Virus record (IMG/VR): IMGVR_UViG_2713896773_000012
Origin: a virus
Lineage: Duplodnaviria > Heunggongvirae > Uroviricota > Caudoviricetes
DNA length: 4,990 nt
Reading direction: 5' to 3' (one strand)
Part shown: positions 1 through 4,990 of the stretch, piece by piece
Numbering within the stretch: the stretch's first letter is position 1
Layout of the letters: each line of letters opens with the position of its first letter
The notes under the pieces: generated by a model
Databases searched by the model: none
Told to the model about the DNA's origin: nothing
What the model saw: the letters and a program-made list of their open reading frames with translations, nothing else
Translations under genes and position numbers: made by a program

Positions 1-414
1 CTGCATCAGGCTGTTTTTTGTTTCTTCCGCCTCCCGGATCCGGAACAGTTTTTCTGCTTCCGTATCCTTCACCCAGGCTGTGCCGTTCCACTTCTGAAAC
101 TCCCCTTCCGGGGATAACCAGGTGATATTTTCCGGTAGAGGTCCGAGTTCAGAAATAAATAACGAGTCGCCGGAAGCCACGTCATAGACGTTTTTTCCCC
201 GATGATCTTCAACGAGATGCCACGATGCCTCATCACTGTTGAAAACAGCCACGAAGCCTGCCGGAATATCTGGCGGTGCAATATAGGTACTGTTTGCTGG
301 CAGACCTGTATGAGGCGGAATATATGCGTCACCTTCACCAATAAATTCATTAGTTCCGGCCAGCAGATTATAAATTTTTATGGTCCGTGGTTGTTCACTC
401 ATTCTGAATGCCAT
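1..414 (-). CDS. tfa: Tail fibre assembly protein Tfa (lambda Tfa family); ATG at 414-412, 138 codons in window with no stop, 3' end beyond window start
   Basis: Manual translation of the minus strand from 414 gives [138 protein letters not shown], open to position 1. This matches lambda Tfa as I recall it. Start overlaps the upstream stop (TAATG). Not in the ORF track because no stop lies in the window. Confidence 0.85.
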
Positions 415-713
415 TACGCAAGCCTCACAATATAGTTAAATGCGATGTTTTTGACGGTGTTTTCCGCGTTACCAGCAGCGTTAACGGTGATGGTATGTCC
501 ATGTGAACCAATCGCAACGGAGTGCGTATGAGCACCAATACCGACAGTATGTGCGTGTGCACCTGCGCTTGCAGCAGTACCCGATACAGAGTGCGTATGA
601 GCGCCTGCAGAAGAAGTGTTAACACTGTATTTAGAATAATCAGGTGATCCACTTCCCGGAGCACCACTGGAACCACCTGAAACAAATGTCATCGAATGGG
701 TATGTGCACCGGC
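414..713 (-). pseudogene. Side tail fibre protein Stf, C-terminal remnant (about 100 codons) lacking its N-terminal part
   Basis: ORF-track protein 414..722 ends ...[31 protein letters not shown], the characteristic lambda Stf C-terminus, and carries (G/A)AHxHS repeats. It has no upstream Stf body: the sequence 5' of about 713 is J-derived in another frame. Boundary is approximate (about 10 bp). Confidence 0.75.
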
Positions 714-1026
714 TGTCCCCATGCATTTACCGCCCGGACTGTCAGCCTGTAATTTCCCAGCGCCAGCTGCGTGAAGCGATATGTGGTTTCCGTCGTCCGG
801 GCCGTGCTGACCAACCGCTCACTGCCGTCGTCCGCTGCCACGGTCAGGCGAAGCATAAAGCTCACCCCCTTCACCACCTTCGGCGTGTCCCAGCGCGCCA
901 GCACCTGGTATTCCCCGCTGTCTGCGGTGACTTCTGCGGTCAGGTGCTGAACTGCTGGCGGCGTGACACCATTCACCGTGCCGCTCTGGTCACCGTCAAA
1001 GTGCGCCCCGTTATCAGTTCATCCAG
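714..1026 (-). pseudogene. Host specificity protein J (central tail fibre), internal fragment of about 105 codons, no start or native stop
   Basis: Minus-strand translation reads ...[101 protein letters not shown], matching an internal stretch of lambda J. It is flanked by nu1 sequence upstream and Stf sequence downstream. Confidence 0.75.
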
Positions 1027-1518
1027 CGCGGCTGCTTTGTTCATGGCTTTGATGATATCCCGTTTCAGGAAATCAACATGTCGGTTTTCCAGTTCCGGAA
1101 AACGCCGCTGCACCGACAGGGGGATCCCGTCGAGAATACTGGCAATTTCACCTGCGATCCGCGACAGCACGAAAGTACAGAATGCGGTTTCCACCACTTC
1201 AGCGGAGTCTCTGGCATTTTTCAGCTCCTGTGCGTCGGCCTGCGCACGCGTAAGTCGATGGCGTTCGTACTCAATAGTCCCTGGCTGGAGATCTGTCTCG
1301 CTGGCCTGCCGCAGTTCTTCAACTTCCCGGCGCAGCTTTTCGTTCTCAATTTCAGCATCCCTTTCGGCATACCATTTTATGACGGCGGCAGAATCATAAA
1401 GCACCTCATTACCCTTGCCACCGCCTCGCAGAACGGGCATTCCCTGTTCCTGCCAGTTCTGAATGGTACGGATACTCGCACCGAAAATGTCAGCCAGCTG
1501 CTTTTTGTTGACTTCCAT
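973..1518 (-). CDS. nohA: Terminase small subunit Nu1 homologue (cryptic prophage Noh type); residues 1-169 Nu1-like, last 12 residues (TGRTLTVTRAAR) from out-of-frame J sequence
   Basis: ORF-track 181-aa protein MEVNKKQLADIFGASIRTIQNWQEQGMPVLRGGGKGNEVLYDSAAVIKWYAERDAEIENEKLRREVEELRQ... is near-identical to lambda Nu1 up to ...KAAALDELI, then diverges. The start lies about 190 bp downstream of cosN, as in lambda. Symbol nohA rests on Qin-like neighbours (ynfO, ydfO, gnsB, cspI); nohD/nohB of DLP12 cannot be excluded. Confidence 0.88.
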   Translation of the reverse strand: MEVNKKQLADIFGASIRTIQNWQEQGMPVLRGGGKGNEVLYDSAAVIKWYAERDAEIENEKLRREVEELRQASETDLQPGTIEYERHRLTRAQADAQELKNARDSAEVVETAFCTFVLSRIAGEIASILDGIPLSVQRRFPELENRHVDFLKRDIIKAMNKAAALDELITGRTLTVTRAAR

Positions 1519-1529
1519 TGTTCATTCCA

Positions 1530-1740
1530 CGGACAAAAACAGAGAAAGGAAACGACAAAGGCCAAAAAGCCCGCTTTCAGCACCTGTCGTTTCCTTTCTT
1601 TTCAGGGGGTATTTTAAATAAAAACATTAAGTTACGACGAAGAAGAACGGAAACACCTTAAACCGGAAAATTTTCATAAATAGCGAAAACCCGCGAGGTC
1701 GCCGCCCCGTAACCTGTCGGATCACCGGAAAGGACCCGTA
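1530..1740 (-). other. Lambda-type cos site: cosB (R1/R2/R3 gpNu1 sites and IHF site I1, about 1535-1660), cosN (12-nt cohesive end 1696-1707), cosQ region (about 1720-1740 by analogy)
   Basis: Reverse complement of 1696-1713 is GTTACG/GGGCGGCGACCT, the lambda right-end/left-end junction with the 12-nt cohesive end. Minus-strand sequence downstream reads CGCGGGTTTTCGCTATTTATGAAAATTTTCCGG... with repeated CGTTTCC(G/T)TTCT-type R elements and an A/T-rich IHF-like segment before the nu1 ATG. 1714-1906 matches the terminal 190 bp of lambda's right end as I recall it. Confidence 0.8.
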
Positions 1741-1906
1741 AAGTGATAATGATTATCATCTACATATCACAACGTGCGTGGAGGCCATCAAACCACGTCA
1801 AATAATCAATTATGACGCAGGTATCGTATTAATTGATCTGCATCAACTTAACGTAAAAACAACTTCAGACAATACAAATCAGCGACACTGAATACGGGGC
1901 AACCTC

Positions 1907-2140
1907 ATGTCAACGAAGAACAGAACCCGCAGAACAACAACCCGCAACATCCGCTTTCCTAACCAAATGATTGAACAAATTAACATCGCTCTTGAGCAAA
2001 AAGGGTCCGGGAATTTCTCAGCCTGGGTCATTGAAGCCTGCCGCCGGAGACTGTGCTCAGAAAAAAGAGTTTCTTCTGAAGCAAACAAAGAAAAGAGTGA
2101 CATTACTGAATTGCTCAGAAAACAGGTCAGACCAGATTGA
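1907..2140 (+). CDS. ynfO: Small Arc/Mnt-like ribbon-helix-helix DNA-binding protein (YnfO/YlcI-type prophage protein), 77 aa
   Basis: ORF-track 77-aa protein. The segment TRNIRFPNQMIEQINIALEQKGSGNFSAWVIEACRRRL fits the RHH pattern (beta-strand RNIRFP, helix A, G-x-S/N turn, helix B) and parallels P22 Arc (FNLRWP...ENGRSVNSEIYQRV). Symbol is assigned by position between nohA-like and ydfO-like, not by remembered sequence. Confidence 0.6.
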   Translation: MSTKNRTRRTTTRNIRFPNQMIEQINIALEQKGSGNFSAWVIEACRRRLCSEKRVSSEANKEKSDITELLRKQVRPD

Positions 2141-2197
2141 AGCAATTTAGATAATCGTGCAGACTACGCCCCCTCATATCACATGGAAGGTTTATCT

Positions 2198-2608
2198 ATG
2201 GATCAGGTAGTCATTTTTAAACAAATATTTGATAAAGTTCGAAACGATTTAAACTATCAATGGTTTTATTCTGAGCTAAAACGTCACAATGTCTCACATT
2301 ACATTTACTATTTAGCCACAGAGAATGTTCATATTGTATTAAAAAATGATAATACAGTGTTATTAAAGGGCCTAAAAAACATTGTGTCTGTCAAATTTTC
2401 AAAGGATAGGCATCTTATAGAAACGACCTCTAATAAGCTGAAATCCAGAGAGATCACATTTCAGGAATACAGAAGAAACCTTGCTAAAGCAGGAGTTTTT
2501 CGGTGGGTTACAAATATCCACGAACAAAAAAGATATTACTATACCTTTGATAATTCATTACTATTTACTGAAAGCATCCAGAAAACTACACAGATCTTAC
2601 CACGCTAA
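2198..2608 (+). CDS. ydfO: DUF1398-family prophage protein (YdfO/YbcV-like), 136 aa from the second ATG
   Basis: ORF-track ORF 2183..2608. The internal ATG at 2198 is preceded by GGAAGG (2185-2190) at 7-nt spacing, giving 136 aa ([30 protein letters not shown]...). Recognised as the YdfO/YbcV family; very AT-rich coding sequence. Confidence 0.75.
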
Positions 2609-2616
2609 ACCATAAC

Positions 2617-2645
2617 GTCCGGCTTCTCTCACTCCTGAGCCGGAC
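2617..2645 (+). terminator. GC-rich stem-loop just after the ydfO stop; candidate terminator with a poor U-tract
   Basis: Perfect 8-bp inverted repeat GTCCGGCT (2617-2624) / AGCCGGAC (2638-2645) with a 13-nt loop. The following sequence CTGCATTGGTTTAAT is only weakly T-rich. Confidence 0.35.
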
Positions 2646-2711
2646 TGCATTGGTTTAATAAAAACCATCAACAATTGTGATTTAGATATTCGGAACCATT
2701 CAAATATAACA

Positions 2712-2733
2712 AAACCCCGTAAAAACGAGGTTT
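2712..2733 (-). terminator. Rho-independent terminator downstream of gnsB (minus strand)
   Basis: Minus-strand RNA reads CCUCG-UUUUUA-CGGGG followed by UUUUGUUAUAUUU (5-bp stem including one G-U pair, then a U-tract). It lies 27 bp past the gnsB stop. On the plus strand the same stem has a C-A mismatch, so it is oriented for the minus strand. Confidence 0.55.
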
Positions 2734-2759
2734 ATGGATAAATTTTATTATTGAATACA

Positions 2760-2933
2760 TCAGATTAAATTAATCTTGACATCATAGCTTTCAAGACCCG
2801 TCATTTTTTCCCGTGCGGTAAACTGAATACTGGTAACTTCTTTCCCGGTCTTTTTCTTAAGTTCAATAATTTTTTTTGTTATATATTCAGAAATATCTGC
2901 TTCTGCTTTTGTTTTTAAGTTTTCAATATTCAT
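2760..2933 (-). CDS. gnsB: GnsA/GnsB-family small protein, 57 aa
   Basis: Manual minus-strand translation gives MNIENLKTKAEADISEYITKKIIELKKKTGKEVTSIQFTAREKMTGLESYDVKINLI, which carries the GnsA/GnsB signature (TGKEV...FTAREKMTGLESYDVKI). AGAGGA Shine-Dalgarno lies 4 nt upstream of the ATG at 2933. Below the length cut-off of the ORF track. Confidence 0.8.
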   Translation of the reverse strand: MNIENLKTKAEADISEYITKKIIELKKKTGKEVTSIQFTAREKMTGLESYDVKINLI

Positions 2934-2981
2934 CATTTCCTCTTTTAGTCTGTTATGACTTTCCAGTTACACAGTAAGTCG

Positions 2982-2987
2982 ATTATA
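2982..2987 (-). promoter_or_regulatory. Candidate sigma70 -10 hexamer (TATAAT) for gnsB
   Basis: Minus-strand sequence ...CTTATCTTTTACACGTTTGCACCATATAATCGACTTACTG... has a consensus TATAAT about 48 nt upstream of the gnsB ATG. The -35 region is weak (TTATCT/TTTACA with suboptimal spacing). Pattern-based only. Confidence 0.3.
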
Positions 2988-3104
2988 TGGTGCAAACGTG
3001 TAAAAGATAAGATGAAACATCGCAATAATCAACATACGATAGTCTAAATTTTACACAAACAGACAAAGAGAATTTTCCTGAATTATCAATGCAATAGCAT
3101 CAAA

Positions 3105-3335
3105 TCAACTCAAGAGCCTTATTGCTGCTTCCAGAATTTCTTCTGAAGTAACATGTCGATCCGCGGCTACATAAATGACTTTATGATCTCCGGTCAGAGA
3201 TGGAAACCCTGCGGCCATTACAGTAAGGTGTGTTTTTTCGCCATTTGGATATTCACGCATGATGGTGTTAACTCCAGTCATCGCTGGCACTACCACTGCT
3301 GGTTCAGAGTTAAAAAAAACTATGATTTTTTTCAT
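3105..3335 (-). CDS. ynfN: Small protein of the YnfN/YmcE family (76 aa from ATG 3335; alternative 51-aa product from ATG 3260)
   Basis: ORF-track ORF 3105..3377 begins at a non-ATG codon; the first ATG (3335) gives MKKIIVFFNSEPAVVVPAMTGVNTIMREYPNGEKTHLTVMAAGFPSLTGDHKVIYVAADRHVTSEEILEAAIRLLS. The internal ATG at 3260 has GGAG 11 nt upstream and gives 51 aa, the length I recall for K-12 YnfN. Position between gnsB and cspI mirrors the chromosomal gnsA-ymcE-cspG arrangement. Confidence 0.55.
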   Translation of the reverse strand: MKKIIVFFNSEPAVVVPAMTGVNTIMREYPNGEKTHLTVMAAGFPSLTGDHKVIYVAADRHVTSEEILEAAIRLLS

Positions 3336-3377
3336 GATGTTACCGTAGTATGTGAGTATCCATCGAATAGACACCAA

Positions 3378-3403
3378 GCAAAAAAGCTCCCGAAGGAGCC
3401 TTC
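3378..3403 (-). terminator. Strong Rho-independent terminator (minus strand) with a C(UUCG)G tetraloop, between the cspI remnant and ynfN
   Basis: Minus-strand RNA reads AAGGCUCC-UUCG-GGAGCUUUUUUGC: a stem of 7-8 bp (one G-U), a UUCG loop closed by C-G, then six U. Confidence 0.6.
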
Positions 3404-3606
3404 ATTTTCACTTTTTTAAATCCAACGACAGACGGCTGGCATTTAAGTATTGTGAAATATTATCAAATGTAATCATCATTGATTTACAAAAGATACATTT
3501 TGCCCCGAAAGGATTCATGTCAGAAACATCAAAAGATGATGTTCTATACTGGGAACCATGACAACACGGGCATCTAAAGTGAATATGGTTTGTAATATTG
3601 TCTACC

Positions 3607-3732
3607 TCAAAGCGCCACTACATGAACAGCGGCAGGACCTTTAGGTCCGTTCTCAATACCAAATTCAACTTCCTGATTCTCAGTTAATGTTTTGAAATCG
3701 TTGCTCTGAATTGCTGAGAAATGGACAAACAC
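3607..3732 (-). pseudogene. cspI: Cold-shock protein CspI, 3' remnant (codons 30-70 plus stop); 5' part displaced or removed by IS3
   Basis: Manual minus-strand translation from 3732 gives [41 protein letters not shown], the C-terminal two-thirds of a CspA-family protein (RNP2 motif VFVHF present, RNP1 KGFGFI absent). The reading frame runs directly into the IS3 right inverted repeat at 3733. Confidence 0.8.
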
Positions 3733-3771
3733 TGATCCTACCCACGTAATATGGACACAGGCCTAAGCGAG
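3733..3771. repeat. IS3 terminal inverted repeat at the orfB-proximal end (IRR)
   Basis: Begins TGATCC...; pairs with the 4952-4990 repeat. The orfB stop (3763-3765) lies inside it. Confidence 0.85.
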
Positions 3772-4629
3772 GTTCTTGTTTTCAAATTGTTCCGGACTGA
3801 GGCCGCCACACCAACTGTGCCGCCGCCACCGATTGTAATCACATTCGATATAATTAAACACCGTTGCCCGCATTATTTCCCGGCTGATAAAGTGTTCTCC
3901 ATGGATACATTCCACTTTCAGCGAATGAAAGAAGCTTTCCACGCAGGCATTATCGTAGCAGCAACCTTTTGCGCTCATACTTCCACGCAGATTATGCCGC
4001 TTCAGTTGCGCCTGATAATCTGCTGAACAGTACTGGCCTCCACGGTCCGTGTGAACGATAACGTTCCGGGGCCTCTTACGCCGCCACAGCGCCATCTGCA
4101 GGGCATCGCAGGCCAGTTGCGCCGTCATGCGTGGCGACATTGACCAGCCAATAACGGCACGTGACCACAGGTCAATGACCACTGCCAGATACAGCCAGCC
4201 TTCATCTGTACGTAAGTACGTGATGTCTCCTGCCCACTTCTGGTTCGGGCCACTGGCGTAAAAATCCTGCTCCAACAGATTTTCTGACACAGGCAGGCCG
4301 TGTGCGCGGTAGCTGACCGGGCTGAACTTCCGGGAGGCCTTTGCCCTCAGTCCCTGACGGCGCAGGCTTGCCGCCACGGTTTTTACGTTAAAGGGGTAAC
4401 CCTGAGCACGCAGTTCATCCGTCAGGCGTGGGGCACCGTAACGCTGTTTTGACCGGGTAAAAGCCGCGAGGACAACGCTGTCGCAGTGTTGGCGGAACTG
4501 CTGACGCGTGCTTATCCTTGTCCGCCGCTGACACCACGTATACCAGCCGCTGCGGGCCACCCGGAGCACGCGGCACATTGCTTTGATGCTGAACTCAGCC
4601 TGATGTTTTTCAATAAAGACATACTTCAT
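3763..4629 (-). CDS. insF: IS3 transposase OrfB (InsF), 288 aa, DDE catalytic domain; expressed mainly as an OrfAB fusion by -1 frameshifting
   Basis: ORF-track 288-aa protein [36 protein letters not shown]... with DDE context motifs ([29 protein letters not shown]). The ATG overlaps the orfA stop (ATGA) in the -1 frame. Confidence 0.95.
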
Positions 4630-4925
4630 TTCAGGCGCTTCGCGAAGTATGTCGCGGCCTTTTGGAGGATAGCCAGCTCTTCATCCCGTTCTGCCAGCTG
4701 GCGTTTGAGACGTGCAATCTCGGTAGACATCTCCAGTTCACGTTCAGAAGACGTCTGCTGATTTTGCTGTTTACTGCGCCAGTTGTAGAGTTGTGATTCA
4801 TACAGGCTGAGTTCACGGGCTGCGGCAGTAACACCGATGCGTTCAGCAAGCTTCAGGGCTTCACTGCGAAATTCAGGCGAATGCTGTTTACGGGGTTTTT
4901 TACTGGTTGATACTGTTTTTGTCAT
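4626..4925 (-). CDS. insE: IS3 transposase OrfA (InsE), 99 aa, helix-turn-helix/leucine-zipper subunit
   Basis: ORF-track protein (MTH)[102 protein letters not shown] at 4925 is preceded by GAGGTGA; the track start at 4934 is a GTG. Confidence 0.93.
4669..4673 (-). other. Programmed -1 ribosomal frameshift slippery site (A-AAG) for the OrfAB transposase
   Basis: Minus-strand sequence CTC CAA AAG GCC (L-Q-K-A in the orfA frame) contains A AAA G, 43-47 nt upstream of the orfA stop. The IS3 family is known to use an A-AAG shift followed by downstream structure. Confidence 0.6.
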
Positions 4926-4951
4926 GTGAGTCACCTCTGACTGAGAGTTTA

Positions 4952-4990
4952 CTCACTTAGCCGCGTGTCCACTATTGCTGGGTAAGATCA
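4952..4990. repeat. IS3 terminal inverted repeat at the orfA-proximal end (IRL)
   Basis: Reverse complement reads TGATCTTACCCAGCAATAGTGGACACGCGGCTAAGTGAG, an imperfect match to 3733-3771. Confidence 0.85.

Follow-up and report, generated by a model that had tools for sequence, protein, structure and literature searches.

The cold-shock gene cspI of a Qin-type prophage ends at codon 30 against a complete IS3 element in the window, by which we mean the whole stretch of 4,990 nt that was analyzed. This arrangement is best explained by the simple insertion of IS3 into codon 30 (GTG, Val30) with duplication of the triplet CAC, a reading to which we give a probability of roughly 0.8. The cspI::IS3 allele is unique in the data available, in which no relative carries it. 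As a kind of mutation, the knock-out of a dispensable gene of a cryptic prophage by IS3 is a textbook, ordinary event, and the novelty is confined to the exact site.

The cspI fragment, the IS3 copy and their prophage context

Gene calls follow K-12 MG1655 and the annotation that strain IAL7250 carries for the identical DNA (table 1). The order nohA-ynfO-ydfO-gnsB-ynfN-ynfR-ynfQ-cspI was found to be that of K-12 and of the intact Qin-type locus of IAL7250 (L005), and positions 286-3732 of the window were 100% identical to the latter locus. By gene order and sequence identity, the window belongs to a Qin-type defective lambdoid prophage of Escherichia coli.

Table 1. Features of the window, with positions counted from its first base
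Feature	Position	Strand	Remarks
tfaQ, 5' part	1-414	minus
Tail-fibre and J-protein remnants	414-1015
nohA	973-1518		Pfam Phage_Nu1
ynfO	1907-2140
ydfO	2198-2608
gnsB	2760-2933
ynfN	3105-3335
ynfR	3340-3405
GC-rich hairpin followed by a T-run	3372-3399	minus	GGCTCCTTCGGGAGC; palindrome search and reading of the sequence
ynfQ/ymcF-type small cold-shock protein gene	3408-3596	minus	62 aa, ATT start, CxxC...CxxC; identical DNA so annotated in L005, L001 and K-12
cspI, 3' fragment	3607-3732	minus	codons 30-70 (3610-3732) and TGA stop (3607-3609)
RNP2 motif VFVHF of the cspI fragment	3718-3732	minus	alignment to WP_000066495.1
Flanking triplet CAC (GTG, Val30, on the coding strand)	3730-3732		candidate 3-bp target-site duplication
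IS3, complete, 1258 bp	3733-4990	minus	transposase gene reads into the cspI fragment
IS3 right terminal inverted repeat (IRR)	3733-3771		abuts cspI codon 30
IS3 orfB, 288 aa	3763-4629	minus	HTH_21 and rve integrase/DDE core (Pfam)
IS3 orfA, 99 aa	4626-4925	minus	HTH_Tnp_1 (Pfam); ATG at 4925
A4G (AAAAG) -1 frameshift motif	4659-4663	minus	in the orfA/orfB overlap
IS3 left terminal inverted repeat (IRL)	4952-4990		ends with the last base of the window

The minus-strand frame of 3607-3732 translates into 41 residues followed by a stop, and alignment with the intact locus identified these as residues 30-70 of CspI (WP_000066495.1), without a difference. At the nucleotide level, the fragment was identical over 126/126 nt to cspI of K-12 MG1655 (b1552), the cold-inducible CspA-family paralogue of the Qin prophage, and the gene neighborhood was likewise the same; the window's copy differs in being interrupted, and the side of IS3 seen here lacks codons 1-29, RNP1, the 5' UTR and the promoter. 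Full-length CspB and CspI are 70% identical, and the best NCBIfam profile was that of CspG, below its cut-off, both for the fragment and for intact CspI. Since NCBIfam lacks a CspI-specific model, the paralogue call was made on exact identity and synteny, by which the other csp paralogues were ruled out as the identity of the fragment.

These results bear out the first-pass annotation, which had called the gene cspI, cut at codon 30 with residues 30-70 remaining, and the flanking triplet CAC that it reported is read directly at 3730-3732. It had also placed the break between the RNP1 and RNP2 motifs, which holds and can be refined, as GTG (V30), with which VFVHF begins, is the very first codon after the break, and RNP2 is kept whole beside the IS end. 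Missing are codons 1-29, including RNP1 (KGFGFI, residues 16-21), and the Pfam CSD profile is matched only at positions 27-65 of 66, so that the cold-shock domain is incomplete. Judged by what it encodes, the piece is a gene fragment and no functional member of the CspA family.

The adjoining element showed no difference (1258/1258 nt) from the IS3 copy of strain 33-6 (L002, 4833-6090) and a single difference from that of strain UMB200201_11 (L001), both of which RefSeq annotates as an intact IS3 transposase with programmed frameshift. The arms of its inverted repeat, TGATC...GATCA, measure 39 nt and are 72% complementary. A -1 shift at the AAAAG motif, whose role in -1 frameshifting is known from published IS3 work, leads into an open OrfAB fusion of 387 aa, a length in agreement with the 1163-nt joined CDS in RefSeq. 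The element has, as far as can be read from these features, the two-ORF architecture of IS3, with an HTH domain in orfA, the DDE/rve core in orfB and a predicted -1 frameshift fusion. In comparison with the RefSeq IS3 of Escherichia coli (IS3 family, IS3 group, WP_085947771.1), its length, repeats, ORFs, A4G motif and 387-aa fusion were all the same; the element itself is no different and its location alone is new. With full orfA and orfB, the A4G motif, the 39-nt repeats and the open fusion all present, and with both IS3 and cspI on the minus strand, the earlier view of an intact IS3 oriented like cspI stands. The matches to cspI and IS3 extend over the full length compared and are not due to chance. 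IS3-family elements transpose by a copy-out, paste-in route through a circular intermediate, as is established for the family, and the window's copy is presumably still mobile.

At the opposite end of the window, all 15 differences from the intact Qin locus cluster within tfaQ at 98-285. Positions 1-400, in turn, are 100% identical to a tail-fibre-assembly gene that strain ML35 (L017) carries in another prophage. The tfaQ of the window reads as a mosaic, which reflects either an exchange between prophages (gene conversion or recombination) or the route that the assembly took through a repeat. Additionally, nohA runs at its 3' end into a J-protein remnant (713-1015), the overlap marking a deletion junction (973-1020), and the last residues (...ELITGRTLTVTRAAR) of the 181-aa NohA lie beyond its Pfam Nu1 match (residues 1-164); these C-terminal residues may derive from the fused J remnant rather than from Nu1. 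This structure is widespread in E. coli, with 523 genomes covering at least 80% of window 1-3732.

Origin of the cspI-IS3 junction

By simple insertion, an intact IS3 would have transposed into cspI codon 30 and duplicated the 3-bp target CAC/GTG, and the missing codons 1-30, the 5' UTR and the promoter would lie directly beyond the left end of IS3, on another contig. The DNA past that end is predicted to read CAC followed by ATCTTTGCTGCCATCTTTCGG (cspI codons 29 to 1), that is, the predicted partner junction has the IS3 left end (...CTATTGCTGGGTAAGATCA) joined to CACATCTTTGCTGCCATCTTTCGGCGTGATGAAACC. To give this reading a base rate, we inspected the flanks of 13 further complete IS3 copies from finished genomes. 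A perfect 3-bp duplication was observed in nine of the 13, and two more had a duplication with one mismatch (TAA/CAA in L006, 646/1903, and TGA/TAA in L015, 442/1699), their flanks being contiguous on the empty site with a 3-bp overlap. One copy was ambiguous (GAT/GAA), and the remaining one (L008), which lies in a Qin-like region with hokD on one side and a truncated integrase on the other, had no duplication, its flanks being unrelated. Hence 11 of the 13 sampled copies (~85%) are simple insertions whose flanks are contiguous, which makes simple insertion the most likely reading of the window as well.

An IS3-mediated rearrangement, which we regard as an unlikely alternative, would have the copy mark the end point of an adjacent deletion, or of a segment inverted or deleted when two IS3 copies recombined. 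In that case the left end would be followed by DNA with no relation to cspI, the 5' half of the gene with its promoter would have been lost or moved, and rzpQ and the lysis genes perhaps with it. That such events do occur with IS3 follows from the L008 copy, the only one of the 13 without duplication and with unrelated flanks, and strain 23CRST024, in which two direct IS3 copies lie 611 bp apart around cspI, provides a substrate for deletion; the other side of the same sample, with its 11 simple insertions, argues against a rearrangement here. The remaining point in its favor is that the partner junction is unseen, and this point depends on how the window ends.

Two IS3 copies at other loci, both with clean 3-bp duplications, show that the left inverted repeat of IS3 ends at base 4990: in UMB200201_11 the same IS3 end (...GGTAAGATCA) is directly followed by a GAA duplication, and the copy of 33-6 has a clean ATC duplication. 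At the other end, base 1 of the window opens a 97-bp block with the same sequence in the Qin tfaQ and in a tfa paralogue of another prophage, and the base just before this block differs between the two paralogues. Since both ends lie at repeat branch points and the length of 4990 is an odd one, the window is very probably one whole contig of a short-read draft assembly, bounded by repeats. The second junction does lie beyond the window, as had been noted at first, the window stopping at the terminal base of IS3; sequence beyond 4990 probably does not exist in this record, and on the whole-contig reading it is therefore to be sought on other contigs, in the assembly graph or in the reads. The end at a repeat fully accounts for the missing sequence, and the absence of the partner junction is explained without any rearrangement.

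Database searches were in agreement with the singularity of the allele. The observed cspI-IS3 junction had no match in 5,426 complete E. coli genomes, of which 1,576 contain cspI, and in the four top-ranking genome records cspI and IS3 were merely near each other; nor was it matched in species-representative genomes, metagenome contigs or viral contigs. The predicted partner junction (IS3 left end, CAC, cspI codons 29 to 1) was likewise found neither in the 5,426 complete E. coli genomes nor in species-representative genomes or metagenome contigs. This second absence might be taken to favor a rearrangement, but it is uninformative, since the junction that is actually observed in the window is absent too. 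A literature search on IS3 insertion in cspI returned nothing relevant, and an Rfam scan of the window gave no family at threshold.

Far less probable still is an assembly artefact or minority variant, in which a chimeric cspI-IS3 path or only a part of the culture would carry the join and cspI would be intact in the main genotype: the window does behave as a repeat-bounded contig, and its left 285 bp, being of the other tfa paralogue type than the rest, point to some path ambiguity in the assembly, but the join coincides with the terminal base of IS3 in a unique context where a graph assembler needs real k-mers spanning the point, cspI and the IS3 end have no common sequence that could create a false join, and IS3 insertions in the neighborhood of cspI are common in finished genomes.

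IS3 insertions and loss of cspI in other strains

The simple insertion favored for the window has counterparts close by. Within 1.14 kb, seven distinct IS3 sites were found including that of the window, namely three in ynfN (strains 2018-10-1CC, EC01307 and 23CRST024), two in the cspI 5' UTR (UMB200201_11 and 23CRST024), one in rzpQ (33-6, 58-3 and LZYWN_4) and one in cspI itself. The six insertions in other strains were all simple and independent, two of their six duplications having one mismatch, and their empty-site equivalents in window coordinates are 3226 (L016), 3234 (L006), 3260 (L015), 3841 (L006), 3855 (L001) and 4362 (L002). The window shares with these neighbors in Qin-type prophages the same element and the same AT-rich accessory block, whereas they leave the cspI coding sequence intact and the window's insertion is the only one inside the cspI ORF. 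In 23CRST024, two identical direct IS3 copies (L006, 646-3771) bracket cspI-ymcF-ynfR and the start of ynfN, an arrangement that looks like a composite transposon and from which the module could be deleted.

As a specific IS3 hot spot, cspI was rejected, the neighboring ydfO control segment being similar (4 records, 4 sites). The GC-richer nohA control yielded 0 IS3 records, and the GC content of the AT-rich block is 31-39%. The clustering of IS3 is regional, follows AT content and is not specific to cspI, and it may be no denser than the tolerance of dispensable AT-rich DNA for insertions would produce. We consider it doubtful that the AT-rich Qin block (ydfO to rzpQ, including cspI-ynfQ) constitutes a true regional IS3 hot spot, with the allele of the window as one more event in it; the causes proposed for such a hot spot would be a target preference for AT-rich, H-NS-type DNA or a selection that silences or rewires the cold-shock module. 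If it were one, paired IS3 copies around cspI, as in the one strain, could mobilise the module as a composite transposon. Repeated landing of IS3 in an AT-rich prophage block also fits the view of cryptic prophages as sinks for mobile elements.

A second natural loss-of-function allele of cspI occurs in GCA_000704805.1 (L003, 9915-10126), which resembles that of the window in leaving the same 41-aa GTG-initiated ORF and differs from it in being a point mutation of TGG to TAG (W11 amber) instead of an insertion. In GCA_000704805.1 this 41-aa ORF was annotated by the gene caller. An exact-protein look-up of the ORF returned only the W11 amber allele and a metagenome scaffold of 520 bp. This ENA scaffold (L004, 1-520) carries cspI from about codon 29 together with ynfQ and ynfR, and both of its ends join non-Qin sequence, the first 51 nt having no match in any complete E. 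coli genome; the scaffold is chimeric or else represents a foreign context. The cspI::IS3 allele is a possible strain marker and illustrates how assemblies break at IS copies.

Predicted consequences for cspI and ynfQ/ymcF

Should the simple insertion hold, the N-terminal product would comprise CspI residues 1-30 and would end directly at the TGA with which the left end of IS3 begins. On the retained side, the 41-aa ORF starts at GTG with AGGATCA of the IS end directly before it. Since this C-terminal piece retains neither RNP1 nor beta-strands 1 and 2 of the five, no functional cold-shock domain is expected from it, and we infer that the cspI allele is null. CspI is one of nine CspA-family paralogues, and E. 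coli becomes cold-sensitive only when several of these are lost. A knock-out of cspI alone, a gene of a defective prophage, should therefore be close to neutral.

The effect of the insertion would extend beyond cspI, given the probable co-transcription of ynfQ/ymcF, on which the first-pass annotation was silent. The gene at 3408-3596 is named ynfQ in K-12 and ymcF in many RefSeq records, gave a weak NCBIfam CxxC hit, and starts 10 nt past the cspI stop. Transcript levels of ynfQ and cspI fall together in a transcriptome (PMC7653855), and the two genes probably form one transcription unit, from which it follows that the insertion separates ynfQ from the cold-shock promoter and 5' UTR. The gene would accordingly be expected to have lost its cold-shock control. 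Because no terminator-like site was predicted on the minus strand between the orfB stop (3763) and ynfQ (3596), weak read-through from IS3 into ynfQ is possible, and ynfQ could be expressed only in this manner.

Downstream of ynfQ, the hairpin listed in table 1 is the probable terminator of the cspI-ynfQ unit. The 21-codon ynfR ORF is laid over this hairpin and its T-run.
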